From NCBI GenBank assembly GCA_964460145.1, contig CAYWPH010000001.1:26579-90578 (forward strand): a DNA stretch of 64,000 nt, read 5' to 3'. Shown one piece after another: positions 23,476-26,441 of this stretch (positions within the stretch are counted from its first letter, which is position 1; each line of letters starts with the position of its first letter). Below the pieces are notes generated by a model. That model did not search any database. It saw only the letters and a program-made list of their open reading frames with translations, and was not told the origin of the DNA. This stretch comes from an uncultured Gammaproteobacteria bacterium (GTDB taxonomy: Bacteria; Patescibacteriota; Microgenomatia; Levybacterales; UBA12049). Position numbers and translations under genes: made by a program.

Positions 23476-24651
23476 ATGGCAAGAGTAAAAATAAGTGAAT
23501 ACAAAGCTAAACAACTTGTCTATAAACATTTAGGCTTTTCCTCTAATCTTATTTCTTTAAATCTAGATAATCCTTCTGCATTAGATAATCTAGATCCTAA
23601 AAAAAGCTATGCTATTAAGGTTGATCAGGGAGTTAAAGGAAGACTTAAAAAAGGATTAGTTGCTTTGGATAAATCATCTCAAGAGGTAAAAACTATAATT
23701 GATTCTTATAAAAAACTTGGGTTTAATTCTTTTTTAATTGAAGAGTTTGTTCCTCATGCAGGCTCTCAGGAAAAATACATATCAATAGAGAGAGTTAAAG
23801 ATGGAAAATTGATTTTATATTCCAATAAGGGTGGAATTGATATTGAAAAAAATATTGAAAACGTAAAGAAAGTGATTATTAAAGACGATAACAATCTTAA
23901 AGAGATTGCAAATTATTTAGAAGTAAGTACAGAGTTTTTGGAAAAAATAATTAATCTTTATGACGAGCTTTATTTCTCCTTTTTAGAAATTAATCCATTG
24001 GTAATTAAAGATAAAAACATATACCTTCTTGATCTTGCAGTAGAAGTTGATAGCACAGCAGAGTTTTTTGTAAATGGGCTTTGGGAAGCTGGGGATTTTG
24101 TTTCAGTAAATGCAAAAACAAAAGAAGAAGAGGAAATAATAAATCTATCAGCTAAAAGCCAAGCTGCATTTAAGCTTGATGTTCTAAATCCAAATGGGAG
24201 TATCTTCATGCTTTTATCTGGTGGAGGAGCAAGTATTGTTTTAGCAGATGAGGTGCAAACCCAAGGGTTTAGTAAGGATCTTGCAAACTATGGTGAATAT
24301 AGCGGAAATCCCAGTCAAGAGGAAACATATATTTATACAAAAAATTTATTAAGCCTACTTTTAAAATCTAAAGCAAATAAAAAAGTTTTAATAATAGGCG
24401 GAGGCGTTGCTAACTTTACGGATATAAGAATTACTTTTAAAGGAATTGTAAAAGCTCTGGAGGAAGTTAAAGATGATCTTAAAAAACAAGAAATTAAAGT
24501 TTTTGTAAGAAGAGGAGGTCCTTATCAAAGGGCAGGATTAAAAGATATGGAAACCTTTTTAGAAAAAGAAGATTTTTTGGGAAAAGTATCCGGACCAGAG
24601 ATGGTTTTAACTGACATTGTTTTATATGCATTAAATTATTTAAAAAAATGA
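23476..24651 (+). CDS. aclB: ATP-citrate lyase beta-type subunit (ATP-grasp, SucC-like)
   Basis: Matches the ACLY N-terminal half: FLIEEFVPH, LYFSFLEINPLVI, LDLAVEVDSTA, LANYGEYSGNPSQEETY, FKGIVKAL, VFVRRGGP. Confidence 0.85.
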   Translation: MARVKISEYKAKQLVYKHLGFSSNLISLNLDNPSALDNLDPKKSYAIKVDQGVKGRLKKGLVALDKSSQEVKTIIDSYKKLGFNSFLIEEFVPHAGSQEKYISIERVKDGKLILYSNKGGIDIEKNIENVKKVIIKDDNNLKEIANYLEVSTEFLEKIINLYDELYFSFLEINPLVIKDKNIYLLDLAVEVDSTAEFFVNGLWEAGDFVSVNAKTKEEEEIINLSAKSQAAFKLDVLNPNGSIFMLLSGGGASIVLADEVQTQGFSKDLANYGEYSGNPSQEETYIYTKNLLSLLLKSKANKKVLIIGGGVANFTDIRITFKGIVKALEEVKDDLKKQEIKVFVRRGGPYQRAGLKDMETFLEKEDFLGKVSGPEMVLTDIVLYALNYLKK

Positions 24652-26441
24652 TAGACATAGAAAAAATAAGAAAAAATGAGGGCAAAATAATTACGGTAGG
24701 AAGTTATCCTGCAATAATTCAATCTATTTTAGATTTTGACTATCTAGGCGGTAAAAAAACATCAACAGTTTCTGCAATTATTGCAACAGGAAGAAAATTT
24801 GAGAGATATTTTTGGGGCAAAAAGGAAATTCTTATCCCAGTATATTCTTCTGTTGACGTTATTCCAGATTCCAAAAAGAAAAATTTAACATTTTTTCTTA
24901 ATTTAACCTCAGCAAGAAGAATCTTATCTTCTACAAAAAATTTACTCGAAAGCATACCTTCGCTTTTAGGAGGCGTAATTTTTGCAGAAAATGTGCCGGA
25001 AAAACACGCAATAGAGTTATATAACCTTTCTCAAAAAACAAATAAGTTCATAATTGGTCCCGCAAGTGTAGGCATGGTTATTCCAAATGTTTTTAAACTG
25101 GGTGCAATAGGTGGAATAGATGCAAATCAGTTAGTAGATTCATCACTTTTTACCCCTGGAAACATTGCTGTATTTTCTGCATCAGGTGGTATGACAGGAG
25201 AGCTAATTAGAATAGTTGCTCAAAATAATAAAAATATTTCATTCTCTTTGTCTTTTGGCGGAGATAGATTTCCCATTACCTCACCAAAAGATGCATTTAT
25301 TGCTGCTCAAAATGATCCAGAGACAAAAGTGATTTGTTACTTTGGAGAACTTGGTGGAATTGATGAATATGAGTTAGCAGATCTTATTAAAACAAAAAAA
25401 GTAACTAAATCTGTCTTTTGTTTTATAGCAGGAAGTATTTCTGAAATTTTTGAAACTCCTCCACAATTTGGTCATGCAAAGGCAATGGCAAAAAACAGAA
25501 ATGAAAGTGCCAAAGAAAAAAAAGAAGCACTTAAAGATGTGGGAGCAATTGTTGCCGATACTTTTTCAGAGTTTGTTGAGCTTATAAGAGATCTTGACTA
25601 TGAAGATGTGAAAAGTAAACAAAATTATAGTAAAATACAAGTAGATATGGAAAATAGAAAACAAGCACTGATTGCAACAACTATATCAAGCGATGAAAAT
25701 GGCCAGGTAAAAATACTCGGAGAAGATTTATTAAGTTTTGCAAAAAATAATTCCTTTGCCTTTATTGTGGGATCTTTATTTTTAGGCAAAAAATTAAAAT
25801 CTAGAGAACTAAGTGAATTCATAGATTTTACTCTTAGATTATTGGTTGATCACGGACCTTATGTATCTGGTGCCGTAAATACAATTATTGCGTCCCGTGC
25901 CGGAAAAGATTTAGTTTCATCTCTTTCCAGCGGACTTCTTACCATAGGGCCAAGATTTGGAGGGGCTATTAATCAGGCAGCTCAAAATTGGCTTATAGGT
26001 GTATCTGAAAATAAAAATCCTGTTGAGTTTGTAGAAGAGTTTGCTAAACAAAAAATTTATATTTCAGGCATTGGACATAAGAAATATAGTTTGGATATGC
26101 CAGATCCAAGAGTTGTGGAAATACTTAAATTCTCTGAAAAACTTTCAGAAAAAAAATTTACATCTTTTGCAAAAAAAGTAGAAAAAATTACCACAGGAAA
26201 GAAAGCAAATTTAATTTTAAATATTGATGGCGCTATTGCTGCAGTTTTGTTAGATATATTATCTGAAAAAGAGGGTTATTCAAAAAGTCAGTTACAAGAA
26301 TTAATAGATACAGAATTTTTTAATGCTTTATTTGTGCTATCTCGTTCTGTTGGATTTATTGCGCACTTTTTAGACCAGAAAAGATTAGATGAAGGACTTT
26401 TCAGGCTTGATGAAGATATGGTAGCTTCGGTTGAAAAATAA
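24648..26441 (+). CDS. aclA: ATP-citrate lyase alpha-type subunit (CoA-binding/SucD-like plus citryl-CoA lyase domain)
   Basis: [13 protein letters not shown], catalytic His in PQFGHAKA, and the ACLY-specific segment [42 protein letters not shown]...[12 protein letters not shown]. Confidence 0.85.
   Translation: [597 protein letters not shown]

Follow-up and report, generated by a model that had tools for sequence, protein, structure and literature searches.

A probable two-subunit ATP-citrate lyase with a variant phosphohistidine loop in Candidatus Levybacteria

CPR bacteria are assumed to have a minimal central metabolism, and the origin of their acetyl-CoA is often unclear. Two adjacent genes in the small genome of a member of Candidatus Levybacteria (CPR) raise the question of whether such an organism carries an ATP-citrate lyase (ACL) and in which direction this enzyme would work. 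We examined the pair within a stretch of 64 kb (the window), in which 67 ORFs were called, and compared it with related loci. The closest matches that carry a name are from Levybacteria, and a protein identical to the large subunit (P0001) was found on a 96-kb NCBI contig.

Domain structure and identity of the gene pair

The upstream gene, aclB (positions 23476..24651, + strand, as for all features below), encodes a small (beta-like) ACL subunit of 391 residues. It has an ATP-grasp domain (Pfam Citrate_synth_N; 2e-35; 122.7 bits, cut-off 83) and, after this, the citrate-binding domain specific to ACL (Citrate_bind; 1.6e-58; 197.6 bits, cut-off 26.8). The downstream gene, aclA (24648..26441), encodes a large (alpha-like) subunit of 597 residues, in which a CoA-binding/CoA-ligase part with the phosphohistidine is fused to a citryl-CoA-lyase (citrate-synthase-homology) module; the Pfam domains are Ligase_CoA and Citrate_synt, the latter over residues 241-586. 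The sequence has a 4-nt ATGA stop/start overlap between the two genes (24648..24651), which is consistent with translational coupling. The order aclB-aclA, with the two genes adjacent, is kept in 75 of 83 related loci, and where both ORFs were called the gap ranges from -32 to +103 nt and is often -4.

The matches to solved ACL structures and to the ACL domains are far past chance level, and those of AclA cover residues 13-592. The best PDB match for the large subunit was ACLY-B of Methanosaeta concilii (6hxi_B, 2.3e-108, aligned over residues 17-591), and the small subunit matched ACLY-A at 1.1e-59. The values were 1.5e-107 (large) and 7.7e-69 (small, N-terminal half) for human ACLY, and 3.6e-70 and 3.9e-38 for Chlorobium limicola AclA/AclB. 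Matches to the citryl-CoA synthetase (CCS) and citryl-CoA lyase (CCL) of Hydrogenobacter were weak (2.2e-21 and 2.2e-12 for the synthetase with the large and the small subunit, and 2.7e-15), and those to the alpha subunit of succinyl-CoA synthetase (SCS) were 1e-17 or weaker. The order of the PDB scores for the pair was ACL >> CCS > SCS.

Two related enzymes were considered and rejected. SucCD belongs to the same superfamily, with ATP-grasp in its beta subunit and, in its alpha subunit, CoA binding and a phosphohistidine loop, but, unlike the window pair, it has neither the citrate-binding domain signature nor a citrate-synthase-homology domain. The NCBIfam succinyl-CoA ligase models gave 56-103 bits against cut-offs of 336-375 (60.4 against 375.55 and 103.4 against 336 bits for SucCD), and the C-terminal Citrate_synt domain is present. 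The CcsAB plus Ccl system of Hydrogenobacter (PDB 6hxq, 6hxp) has homologous domains and the same two-step chemistry; its lyase is a separate protein, whereas in the window the lyase is fused within AclA, and the CCS and CCL structures score far below ACL. An earlier sequence-only reading had taken the adjacent genes for both halves of an ACL, with a fused lyase module and a catalytic His, and not for a succinyl-CoA synthetase; the domains and PDB matches bear this out.

The closest known system is that of M. concilii (PDB 6hxi, 6znw), which has two separate subunits in the same order with the same domains; at 391 and 597 residues the window subunits are shorter (421 and 631 in M. concilii). 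Human ACLY (PDB 6poe, 6hxh, 3mwd) is homologous over both halves but is a single fused polypeptide, whose regulatory linker has no counterpart in the window pair. The enzyme of C. limicola (PDB 6hxj) also consists of two subunits, with aclB upstream of aclA and the same domains and catalytic residues, but it is much more distant and serves autotrophic CO2 fixation, of which we saw no sign here.

Catalytic residues and the GHAKA loop

The citrate site of human ACLY was reportedly assigned by Sun et al. in 2010 to G309, N346, T348 and R379. The synthetase-homology catalytic centre has been defined as G281-283, S308, E599, S663, G664 and G665 (PMC11365397). All of the catalytic-centre and citrate-site residues checked are conserved in the window proteins, and the tested catalytic-centre residues are conserved across 81 AclA and 75 AclB CPR sequences. 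In AclB, G249-251, S276, G277, N313, F314, T315 and R346 correspond to human G281-283, S308, G309, N346, F347, T348 and R379 and are conserved in 74-75 of 75 CPR sequences. Three AclA residues are conserved in 81/81 CPR-clade sequences: H276 (codon 25473-25475; human H760 in an alignment to full-length human ACLY, 6poe_A), E114 (24987..24989; by alignment human E599, to which PMC10115795 and PMC11365397 assign the role of catalytic glutamate in the active site of the synthetase-homology part) and D527 (26226..26228; by alignment human D1026, which lies in the lyase module within an NxDG motif). The human D1026A mutant is inactive in acetyl-CoA formation (PMC10115795). H402, H477 and R488, which correspond to human H900, H975 and R986, and the equivalents of S663-G665 are also conserved. 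Because of the domains, the PDB matches, the invariant catalytic-centre residues and the intact, overlapping and co-conserved genes, we conclude that the pair very probably encodes a functional heteromeric ATP-citrate lyase (AclB + AclA, EC 2.3.3.8).

Both segments that the sequence-only reading had quoted are present: the 31-residue segment of the citrate-synthase-homology module (25878..25970; AclA residues 411-441), which could be aligned with residues 909-939 of the human enzyme and with M. concilii ACLY-B, and the phosphohistidine loop QFGHAKA (25464..25484; residues 273-279). That reading was right about the His of this loop, and the other catalytic His and Asp residues (H402, H477 and D527) are likewise present in the alignment, but it missed the departure from the canonical GHAGA. 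In GHAKA, K278 (codon 25479-25481) replaces the canonical Gly (human G762). This Lys is found in 81/81 CPR-clade AclA sequences, whereas almost all other ACL cluster representatives have GHAG[AS]. The human H908 position is hydrophobic in all CPR sequences (Val in the window), and the human R976 position, like G762, is Lys in the window AclA (K 46, R 33 and L 2 across the clade). M. concilii shares the catalytic residues and the Lys at the R976 position but has GHAGA and a His at the H908 position.

It is conceivable that the enzyme has an altered catalysis or another role, with the Lys two residues after the His shifting phosphoryl transfer or the nucleotide or substrate specificity, or with another hydroxy-acid or phosphoryl donor. 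In line with this reading, Gly is near-universal at that position in other ACL clusters, the H908 position has changed in all CPR sequences, and no NCBIfam model recognises the window proteins as ACL. We nevertheless consider an altered role improbable: the citrate-site and catalytic-centre residues are all invariant, other ACL clusters tolerate Trp (P0169) or Ala (P0153) two residues after the His, P0122 has Gly there within the CPR clade itself, and the high conservation, with 50-78% identity across classes, suits an unchanged core function. Since other ACL clusters vary at this position, GHAGA is a signature motif and not a strict requirement of ACL.

Distribution and ancestry

Relatives of the pair occur in at least 121 species-level genomes, which are CPR wherever labelled, and the 80 loci that were kept come from Levy-, Woese- and Roizmanbacteria and Saccharimonadia. 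Neighbour-joining (NJ) trees of AclA and of AclB were built from ACL representatives only; in these trees both subunits place among ACLs and form a CPR-specific clade (bootstrap 1.0 for AclA and 0.945 for AclB). The nearest relatives of this clade are archaeal- and eukaryote-type ACLs, and the eukaryote-like cluster representatives are only 37-38% identical. The AclA of Chlorobiaceae is 35% identical and groups with Nitrospinae in a clade of their own (bootstrap 1.0). The enzyme is therefore not of the Chlorobium type that the label "Eukaryote/Chlorobium-type" of the sequence-only reading suggested.

ACL genes in CPR are already known, and the window pair is another member, of a lineage-specific type. 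CPR aclAB genes are mentioned in passing in two papers (PMC6851277 and PMC12577380). In the first of these, Sieber et al. (2019) described in Gracilibacteria (BD1-5) a two-subunit ACL with archaeal affinity, likewise in a CPR group without classical central metabolism, predicted that it cleaves imported citrate to acetyl-CoA and oxaloacetate, and proposed its lateral transfer from archaea. The reported site of the Gracilibacteria enzyme is the canonical GHAGA, which places this enzyme outside the GHAKA clade; the same paper called ACL rarely detected in CPR, whereas the clade described here is widespread. An ACL in this organism is thus less unexpected than had first been supposed.

The pair had also been put forward as a candidate horizontal acquisition. 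A recent acquisition, or a binning or assembly contaminant from outside the Levybacteria gene set, would fit with the closest non-CPR relatives being archaeal (DPANN) and eukaryote-type and with the proposal of Sieber et al. for Gracilibacteria (PMC6851277). However, the genes lie within one contiguous stretch of CPR housekeeping genes, their GC content is typical (z-scores of -0.9 and -0.2), and their codon-usage distances rank only 65th and 54th of 67 genes. The order TsaD-DUF192-CTP_transf-VanW-SBP-unknown-GreA-aclB-aclA is kept in three related loci (L004, L005 and L082) and in a fourth (L001), where tdh-kbl is inserted between greA and aclB. In the NJ tree the Levybacteria AclA sequences form one clade (bootstrap 0.94), within which the window groups with L004 (1.0). 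Because of the composition, codon usage and synteny, a recent acquisition is disfavoured and we regard it, and contamination, as very unlikely. Vertical inheritance within Candidatus Levybacteria is the best explanation; if a transfer took place, an ancient exchange with archaea or DPANN is the only plausible one.

Gene neighbourhood and direction of the reaction

Upstream of the pair, greA (22958..23431; Pfam GreA_GreB) is kept in the Levybacteria lineage and has the same position in 11 loci; we use it as a synteny anchor and claim no functional link. A promoter-like site, TTAATA-16-TG-TACAAT (23439..23466), ends 10 nt before the aclB start codon, but 20 such sites were found in the region and 18.4 were expected by chance, and the site is only weak evidence for a putative aclB promoter. 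Directly downstream of aclA lies a gene for a NUDIX-GNAT fusion of 272 residues (26516..27334; Pfam NUDIX and Acetyltransf_1), a candidate acetyl-CoA user that forms a singleton cluster and, among the 83 loci, occurs only in this genome. Between it and lysC, a terminator-like GC-rich hairpin with a T-run (27520..27537), for which Rfam had no match, could terminate acl transcription or act as an attenuator in a lysC leader. The genes lysC (27654-28991), dapB (28988-29737), dapA (29734-30618) and asd (30615-31661), all identified with Pfam and NCBIfam, follow; this set of aspartate-to-tetrahydrodipicolinate genes (27654..31661) is linked by 4-nt overlaps.

By homology, ATP in the ATP-grasp domain of AclB would phosphorylate H276 of AclA, and the phosphoryl group would pass to citrate on the citrate-binding domain of AclB (N313, T315, R346). 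Attack by CoA would then yield citryl-CoA, which would be split into acetyl-CoA and oxaloacetate, a step assisted by E114 and by the citrate-synthase-homology module at the C-terminus (H402, H477, D527). The role that we modestly favour is that known from the eukaryotic cytosol, independent of an rTCA cycle, with citrate from the environment or a host as the source of acetyl-CoA; human ACLY, which makes acetyl-CoA from citrate for biosynthesis outside the TCA cycle, is the same in kind. The acetyl-CoA could be used to acetylate cell-envelope sugars at N and O, to supply GNAT enzymes and to make isoprenoids by a mevalonate-type route, and the oxaloacetate could feed aspartate and then diaminopimelate/lysine synthesis.

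The neighbours that recur across lineages bear on this role. MurB lies near ACL in 31, GlmS in 10, a PMM/GlmM-like protein with a GNAT in 4, and Ddl in 3 of the 83 loci; Acyl_transf_3 O-acyltransferases also recur, and in one locus (L088) ACL lies within a glycan cluster of an LbH acetyltransferase and a DegT aminotransferase. The synteny of MurB, EF-G and GreA is lineage-restricted and could reflect history rather than function. The window itself contains an isopentenyl-phosphate kinase (above the curated cut-off), a polyprenyl synthase and UppS. The tdh-kbl genes (threonine to glycine and acetyl-CoA) adjoin aclBA in 7-8 CPR loci, both up- and downstream, and ACL in a DPANN archaeon, which fits a shared theme of acetyl-CoA supply. 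In L004 and L082, tdh-kbl-aminotransferase-lysA occupies the place of the NUDIX-GNAT gene; in L004 lysC-dapB-dapA-asd comes after this block, and with lysA it is also found in L019 and L082. No aminotransferase for the conversion of oxaloacetate to aspartate was identified in the window, and the aminotransferase of the L004 and L082 block may instead be DapL-like. A 2-oxoacid:ferredoxin oxidoreductase lies next to ACL in two related loci and one archaeal locus, and an archaeal-type PEP carboxylase and a class-I aminotransferase are also among the neighbours. A MatC/CitMHS di-/tricarboxylate carrier lies three genes from ACL in L039, the only one of the 83 loci with such an adjacency, and its homologues are in Roizman- and Dojkabacteria and Nanoarchaeota.

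Both directions proposed by the sequence-only reading remain formally possible. In the reverse direction, acetyl-CoA, oxaloacetate, ADP and Pi would give citrate, CoA and ATP, an extra substrate-level phosphorylation in fermentative CPR, and the citrate would be excreted or used for glutamate. Desulfobacter postgatei provides a precedent (Moller et al. 1987, as cited in PMC8085960), and in human ACLY citryl-CoA can form from acetyl-CoA and oxaloacetate (PMC10115795). Moreover, the 64-kb window holds no citrate carrier, a point against the cleavage of imported citrate, and some neighbours make the products of ACL and so suit the reverse reaction equally well: Tdh-Kbl and the 2-oxoacid:ferredoxin oxidoreductase yield acetyl-CoA, and the archaeal-type PEP carboxylase and the class-I aminotransferase could yield oxaloacetate. 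Against this, the reverse reaction has a dGm' of +9 kJ/mol and needs high substrate and low product levels, and oxaloacetate from PEP carboxylase costs the ATP of pyruvate kinase, which leaves no net gain. Stoichiometric oxaloacetate would be needed, or a downstream route through aconitase/IDH, which was not seen in the window; CPR are generally regarded as having no such route. Many neighbours, furthermore, consume acetyl-CoA or aspartate. We therefore hold reverse operation here to be possible but rather unlikely. A broader proposal, that the GHAKA ACLs of CPR and some DPANN work mainly as ATP-harvesting citrate synthases, with acetyl-CoA from Tdh-Kbl or the oxidoreductase and oxaloacetate from PEP carboxylase or an aminotransferase, is in our view doubtful; if true, it would reveal a previously unrecognised site of substrate-level phosphorylation in ultra-small fermenters that return citrate to their host or community.

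The pair might also be the citrate-cleaving step of a CO2-fixing rTCA cycle such as that of Chlorobium, Nitrospira or Campylobacterota, since ACL is the classical marker of this cycle and the 2-oxoacid:ferredoxin oxidoreductase adjoins it in the three loci mentioned above. We find this exceedingly improbable. In agreement with the apparent lack of a TCA cycle already remarked on from the sequence, none of the 67 ORFs in the window is another TCA or rTCA enzyme, including 2-oxoglutarate:ferredoxin oxidoreductase, fumarate reductase and the rest of the rTCA cycle; in the trees the enzyme lies far from the Chlorobi/Nitrospinae clade, and the hosts are small-genome CPR with ACL in contexts of cell-wall and amino-acid genes. 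Because of the recurrent neighbours and the thermodynamics, we modestly favour, from context, citrate cleavage with an anabolic role.

CPR acl genes commonly carry the annotation of a hypothetical protein, a succinyl-CoA synthetase or a citrate synthase. Because of this misannotation, and because NCBIfam has no recognising model, metabolic surveys in which aclAB serves to mark the rTCA cycle can overlook the ACLs of CPR or take them for a sign of carbon fixation. In an enzyme well studied as a drug target, the GHAKA loop of the whole clade is a variant that lends itself to a simple test. The conservation of ACL would imply that citrate carries acetyl units in a large group of CPR, on the principle of the citrate shuttle from mitochondrion to cytosol, and this predicts a metabolite dependency on their hosts or neighbours.

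Identity of the gene pair and its active site

The two adjacent open reading frames that the sequence-only reading had assigned to ATP-citrate lyase (ACL) lie exactly where it had placed them, on the plus strand: aclB at 23476-24651 (391 amino acids) and aclA at 24648-26441 (597 amino acids), the two sharing four bases, ATGA. Both peptides it had quoted are real, QFGHAKA being AclA residues 273-279 and the 31-letter citryl-CoA-lyase segment residues 411-441. According to Pfam, AclB combines an ATP-grasp domain of the ATP-citrate-synthase kind with the citrate-binding domain specific to ACL (Citrate_bind, 1.6e-58); in AclA, a citrate-synthase-type domain comes after a CoA-ligase domain. 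The top matches among all solved structures were Methanosaeta concilii ACLY-B/A and human ACLY, with E-values of about 1e-108 (large subunit) and 1e-59 to 8e-69 (small subunit). The structure of Chlorobium limicola ACL was a far weaker match (3.6e-70 and 3.9e-38, respectively), and the structures of citryl-CoA synthetase/lyase and succinyl-CoA synthetase were weaker still. No NCBIfam model names the two proteins as ACL, and their scores against the succinyl-CoA-ligase models fell far under the cut-offs. The claim that the pair is not just succinyl-CoA synthetase was thus upheld by domains, structure matches and NCBIfam scores, and a succinyl-CoA synthetase identity was rejected on these scores and the weak structure matches. 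An identity as citryl-CoA synthetase/lyase was also rejected, because the lyase module is here part of AclA and the structures of those enzymes match far more weakly than those of ACL. AclB and AclA have all tested defining features of a heteromeric ACL, with the exception of the canonical GHAGA motif.

To compare catalytic residues, AclA was aligned to full-length human ACLY in native numbering, and 81 AclA and 75 AclB sequences from related CPR genomes were surveyed. The citrate-contacting residues are those reportedly assigned by Sun et al. 2010. In AclA, residues E114 (human E599), S179-G180-G181 (S663-G664-G665), H276 (H760), H477 (H975), R488 (R986) and D527 (D1026) are present in 81/81 sequences, and H402 (H900) in 79/81. 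In AclB, S276 and G277 (human S308, G309), N313 and F314 (N346, F347) and R346 (R379) are present in 75/75 sequences, T315 (T348) in 74/75, and G249-251 (G281-283) in 74-75/75. For the roles of human H760, E599, F347, R976 and D1026, and for what makes up the catalytic centre, we follow PMC10115795 and PMC11365397.

The one clear departure from canonical ACL is a lysine, K278, two residues after the catalytic histidine, which gives the loop the form GHAKA. This lysine is found in all 81 sequences of the CPR clade. Nearly all other ACL cluster representatives, including those of Chlorobiaceae, eukaryote-like fused forms, a DPANN archaeon and an outer Saccharibacteria group, carry GHAGA or GHAGS; the exceptions at this position are Trp (representative P0169) and Ala (P0153). 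Specificity might have changed in connection with K278, which we regard as improbable in an enzyme whose citrate-site and catalytic-centre residues are conserved.

Distribution and inheritance

With a GC content of about 33%, the window is AT-rich, and it is dense in CPR-style housekeeping, envelope and nucleotide-sugar genes. An NCBI contig of 96 kb encodes an AclA identical to that of the window, and the close AclA homologues that bear names belong to Candidatus Levybacteria. Among genomes scanned at one per GTDB species, at least 121 encode a relative. The 80 loci kept come from Levybacteria, Woesebacteria, Roizmanbacteria, many Saccharibacteria/Saccharimonadia and unclassified Patescibacteria. 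An exhaustive search of 50%-identity clusters gave only 155 that reached E<=1e-30, with identities of 44-64% in CPR clusters that then drop to <=40%. In the neighbour-joining tree of AclA (200 bootstraps), support was 1.0 for the CPR clade, 0.94 for Levybacteria and 1.0 for the window together with the Levyibacteriota MAG NC_groundwater_1096 (locus L004). Chlorobiaceae and Nitrospinae formed a group (1.0) well apart from the CPR clade, and the nearest outgroups include a second, GHAGA-bearing Saccharibacteria type and the DPANN archaeon Candidatus Norongarragalinales. The AclB tree, built in the same way, recovered the CPR clade (0.945), with branching inside it poorly resolved. The label "Chlorobium-type" therefore holds true only of the split into two subunits, since Chlorobiaceae AclA is 35% identical to that of the window and falls in a separate clade.

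The suggestion of a horizontal acquisition did not stand as far as recent transfer is concerned. The GC content and codon usage of both genes are typical of the window (aclB and aclA rank 65th and 54th of 67 genes in codon-usage distance), and the gene order flanking them is common to other Levybacteria. Because of this typical composition and conserved order, we conclude that aclBA is resident and vertically inherited in the lineage; contamination or a recent transfer is less likely and was rejected on the same grounds. Any inter-domain transfer of aclBA is ancient.

Dozens of GTDB representative MAGs with the CPR-type ACL are titled "uncultured Gammaproteobacteria", many of them TPA records (loci L005-L083). 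Since the gene order in these MAGs is that of Levybacteria, such titles are evidently placeholders and mislabel the genomes. In the source records, most of the ACL proteins go under the names "hypothetical protein", "succinyl-CoA synthetase alpha subunit" or "citrate/2-methylcitrate synthase". The search also showed fused single-chain ACLs, about 1000 amino acids long, which form a large clade and have no long eukaryotic linker (P0145, P0148, P0151, P0156, P0162, P0164 and others).

Neighbours of aclBA in the window and in related genomes

In the window, aclBA is preceded by greA and followed by a NUDIX-GNAT fusion gene (26516-27334), whose product has a cluster of Cys residues at its N-terminus, by lysC-dapB-dapA-asd joined through 4-nt overlaps, by an unknown gene and by a class-I (archaeal-type) lysyl-tRNA synthetase gene (32873-34429). 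At species level the nearest relatives are L004 and L082, and both have a tight string greA-aclB-aclA-tdh-kbl-aminotransferase-lysA-lysC, which in L004 goes on with dapB-dapA-asd and in L082 lies at a locus that stops soon after lysC. The NUDIX-GNAT gene, found in this genome alone among 83 related loci, occupies the exact place of tdh-kbl-aminotransferase-lysA. In the close relative L005 (11786-14074; 75% AclA identity), about 1.9 kb without a called ORF follows aclA where other genomes carry tdh-kbl or NUDIX-GNAT. With tblastn, neither the window nor L005 showed any remnant of tdh, kbl, the aminotransferase or lysA. The window locus has been remodelled, and in the Levybacteria lineage the region 3' of aclA is a hotspot at which genes turn over.

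Promoter-like sites in the region were no more numerous than chance, and we therefore base no claim about transcription units on the promoter scan. The 319-nt gap before lysC (27335-27653) contains a strong promoter-like site at 27382-27410 (11/12 matches, with TG), a possible leader ORF of 24 amino acids that starts at 27422 and contains Lys codons (MKNLVISFEDKCKKNLSMRGFVLS), and a GC hairpin with a T-run at 27520-27537. Rfam gave nothing at E<=1 for this leader and nothing at gathering threshold in the whole window. The region could be an undescribed lysine-responsive leader. The gene at 31793-32857, directly before that for lysyl-tRNA synthetase, encodes a protein of 354 amino acids that matches nothing in Pfam, NCBIfam or PDB; the related locus L001 has an unannotated gene of 377 amino acids in the same position. 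Elsewhere in the window, the minus strand encodes an HNH-repeat (homing-endonuclease-associated) protein at 39432-40076; after it come two large polytopic membrane proteins, neither with a Pfam match (40121-41593 and 41596-43332).

Across the 83 ACL loci, the most frequent neighbour was MurB (31 loci; 16 directly downstream and 29 within three genes, on the same strand in every case), followed by EF-G, upstream at 23, and GlmS at 10. Kbl and Tdh, at 8 and 7 loci, are always co-oriented and within three genes, upstream of ACL in some genomes and downstream in others; a Saccharimonadales genome is among those that have them. Also recurrent were a class-I aminotransferase (AspAT- or DapL-like; 7 loci), LysC (4), DapB, DapA and LysA (3 each), Asd (2), a PMM/GlmM-like mutase with GNAT (4), Ddl (3), 2-oxoacid:ferredoxin oxidoreductase (2) and, at several Saccharimonadia loci, Acyl_transf_3 membrane O-acyltransferases. 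At five loci of a Woesebacteria-like lineage (L033, L042, L052, L055, L066), a dCTP deaminase and a PEP carboxylase of archaeal type (Pfam PEPcase_2, 443.8 bits) lie upstream of aclBA. At L001, an aspartate aminotransferase beside ACL was considered and rejected; the protein resembles Kbl (BioF/Kbl family; 491.7 bits, slightly below the cut-off), and its partner is a Tdh-like Zn-dehydrogenase.

Three more contexts come from ACLs that are not part of the main clade. The DPANN locus L085 (Candidatus Norongarragalinales, DATDSY010000081.1, 4240-9779) has aclB-aclA followed by kbl (7340-8536, minus strand) and tdh (8751-9779, plus strand), whose products are 44-48% identical to the Kbl and Tdh flanking CPR ACLs. 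The ACL-Tdh-Kbl association thus crosses the divide between bacteria and archaea. At another archaeal locus, L089, a 2-oxoacid:ferredoxin oxidoreductase adjoins ACL. A GHAGA-type pair (P0137; L088, a Logan SRR23086398 contig, 4040-10839) lies within a glycan-biosynthesis cluster, directly after a hexapeptide-repeat acetyltransferase and a DegT aminotransferase/oxidoreductase fusion, with an epimerase and glycosyltransferases on its far side.

Reaction direction and role

By homology, ATP would phosphorylate AclA H276, citryl-phosphate and then citryl-CoA would form at the AclB/AclA interface, and citryl-CoA would be cleaved to acetyl-CoA and oxaloacetate. We think, with moderate confidence, that the enzyme works in this direction and has an anabolic role, in which citrate, as in the eukaryotic cytosol, would carry acetyl units and could be imported. 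Thermodynamics favours cleavage: citrate formation with ATP yield has a dGm' of +9 kJ/mol, and the enzyme usually runs the opposite way (PMC8085960). The most varied set of neighbours consumes ACL products, namely acetyltransferases of three families and GlcNAc/MurNAc genes for acetyl-CoA, and aspartate-to-DAP/lysine genes for oxaloacetate. The recurrence of tdh-kbl also favours this role, since it reads as a parallel route to acetyl-CoA from imported metabolites. A demand for acetyl-CoA may also come from a five-gene cluster at 2227-6109, about 20 kb upstream of aclBA, which encodes an IDI-like NUDIX protein (2227-2769, minus strand), an isopentenyl phosphate kinase (2851-3624, plus strand; NCBIfam NF040647, 193.5 bits, cut-off 120), an unknown protein of 217 amino acids (3626-4279), a polyprenyl synthase (4282-5337, minus strand) and UppS (5357-6109, minus strand); the kinase marks a mevalonate-type, archaeal-like isoprenoid route, which would need acetyl-CoA.

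The cleavage reading has its weak points. No citrate carrier is encoded in the 64-kb window, and one lies near ACL at a single locus, L039, where a MatC_N/CitMHS-family di-/tricarboxylate carrier (9206-10456, minus strand) is three genes from aclA. Homologues of this carrier are present in ACL-bearing CPR lineages; at 54-60% identity they are found in Roizmanbacteria, Dojkabacteria and unclassified Patescibacteria, and also in Nanoarchaeota. Those of Roizman- and Dojkabacteria are not adjacent to ACL, so this context adds little. Furthermore, some neighbours (Tdh-Kbl, 2-oxoacid:ferredoxin oxidoreductase, PEP carboxylase) produce ACL products. The main rival, that ACL runs in reverse as an ATP-yielding citrate synthase, has a precedent in the reverse citrate synthesis reported for Desulfobacter postgatei and seems unlikely to us given the thermodynamics. 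A role in the reductive TCA cycle is less likely and was rejected, because no other enzyme of the TCA or reductive TCA cycle is found among the window's 67 ORFs and the protein is remote from the Chlorobi/Nitrospinae clade.

An ACL gene in itself will be of little surprise to a CPR specialist. A two-subunit ACL of archaeal affinity has been described in a Gracilibacterium and called "rarely detected in CPR" (PMC6851277); that enzyme has GHAGA, whereas the window ACL has GHAKA. A 2025 study found aclAB enriched in Saccharimonadia MAGs (PMC12577380), and a preprint reports misannotated citrate-cleavage genes in CPR and DPANN. Our literature search returned nothing on the ACL of Levybacteria or Microgenomates, and neither the GHAKA signature nor an association of ACL with Tdh-Kbl turned up in it. 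To a known enzyme the pair therefore adds an active-site variant specific to its clade, in a conserved context that is informative. Directly testable hypotheses on the acetyl-CoA supply of ultra-small symbionts follow from how broad the clade is, from its invariant lysine and from the cross-domain module.
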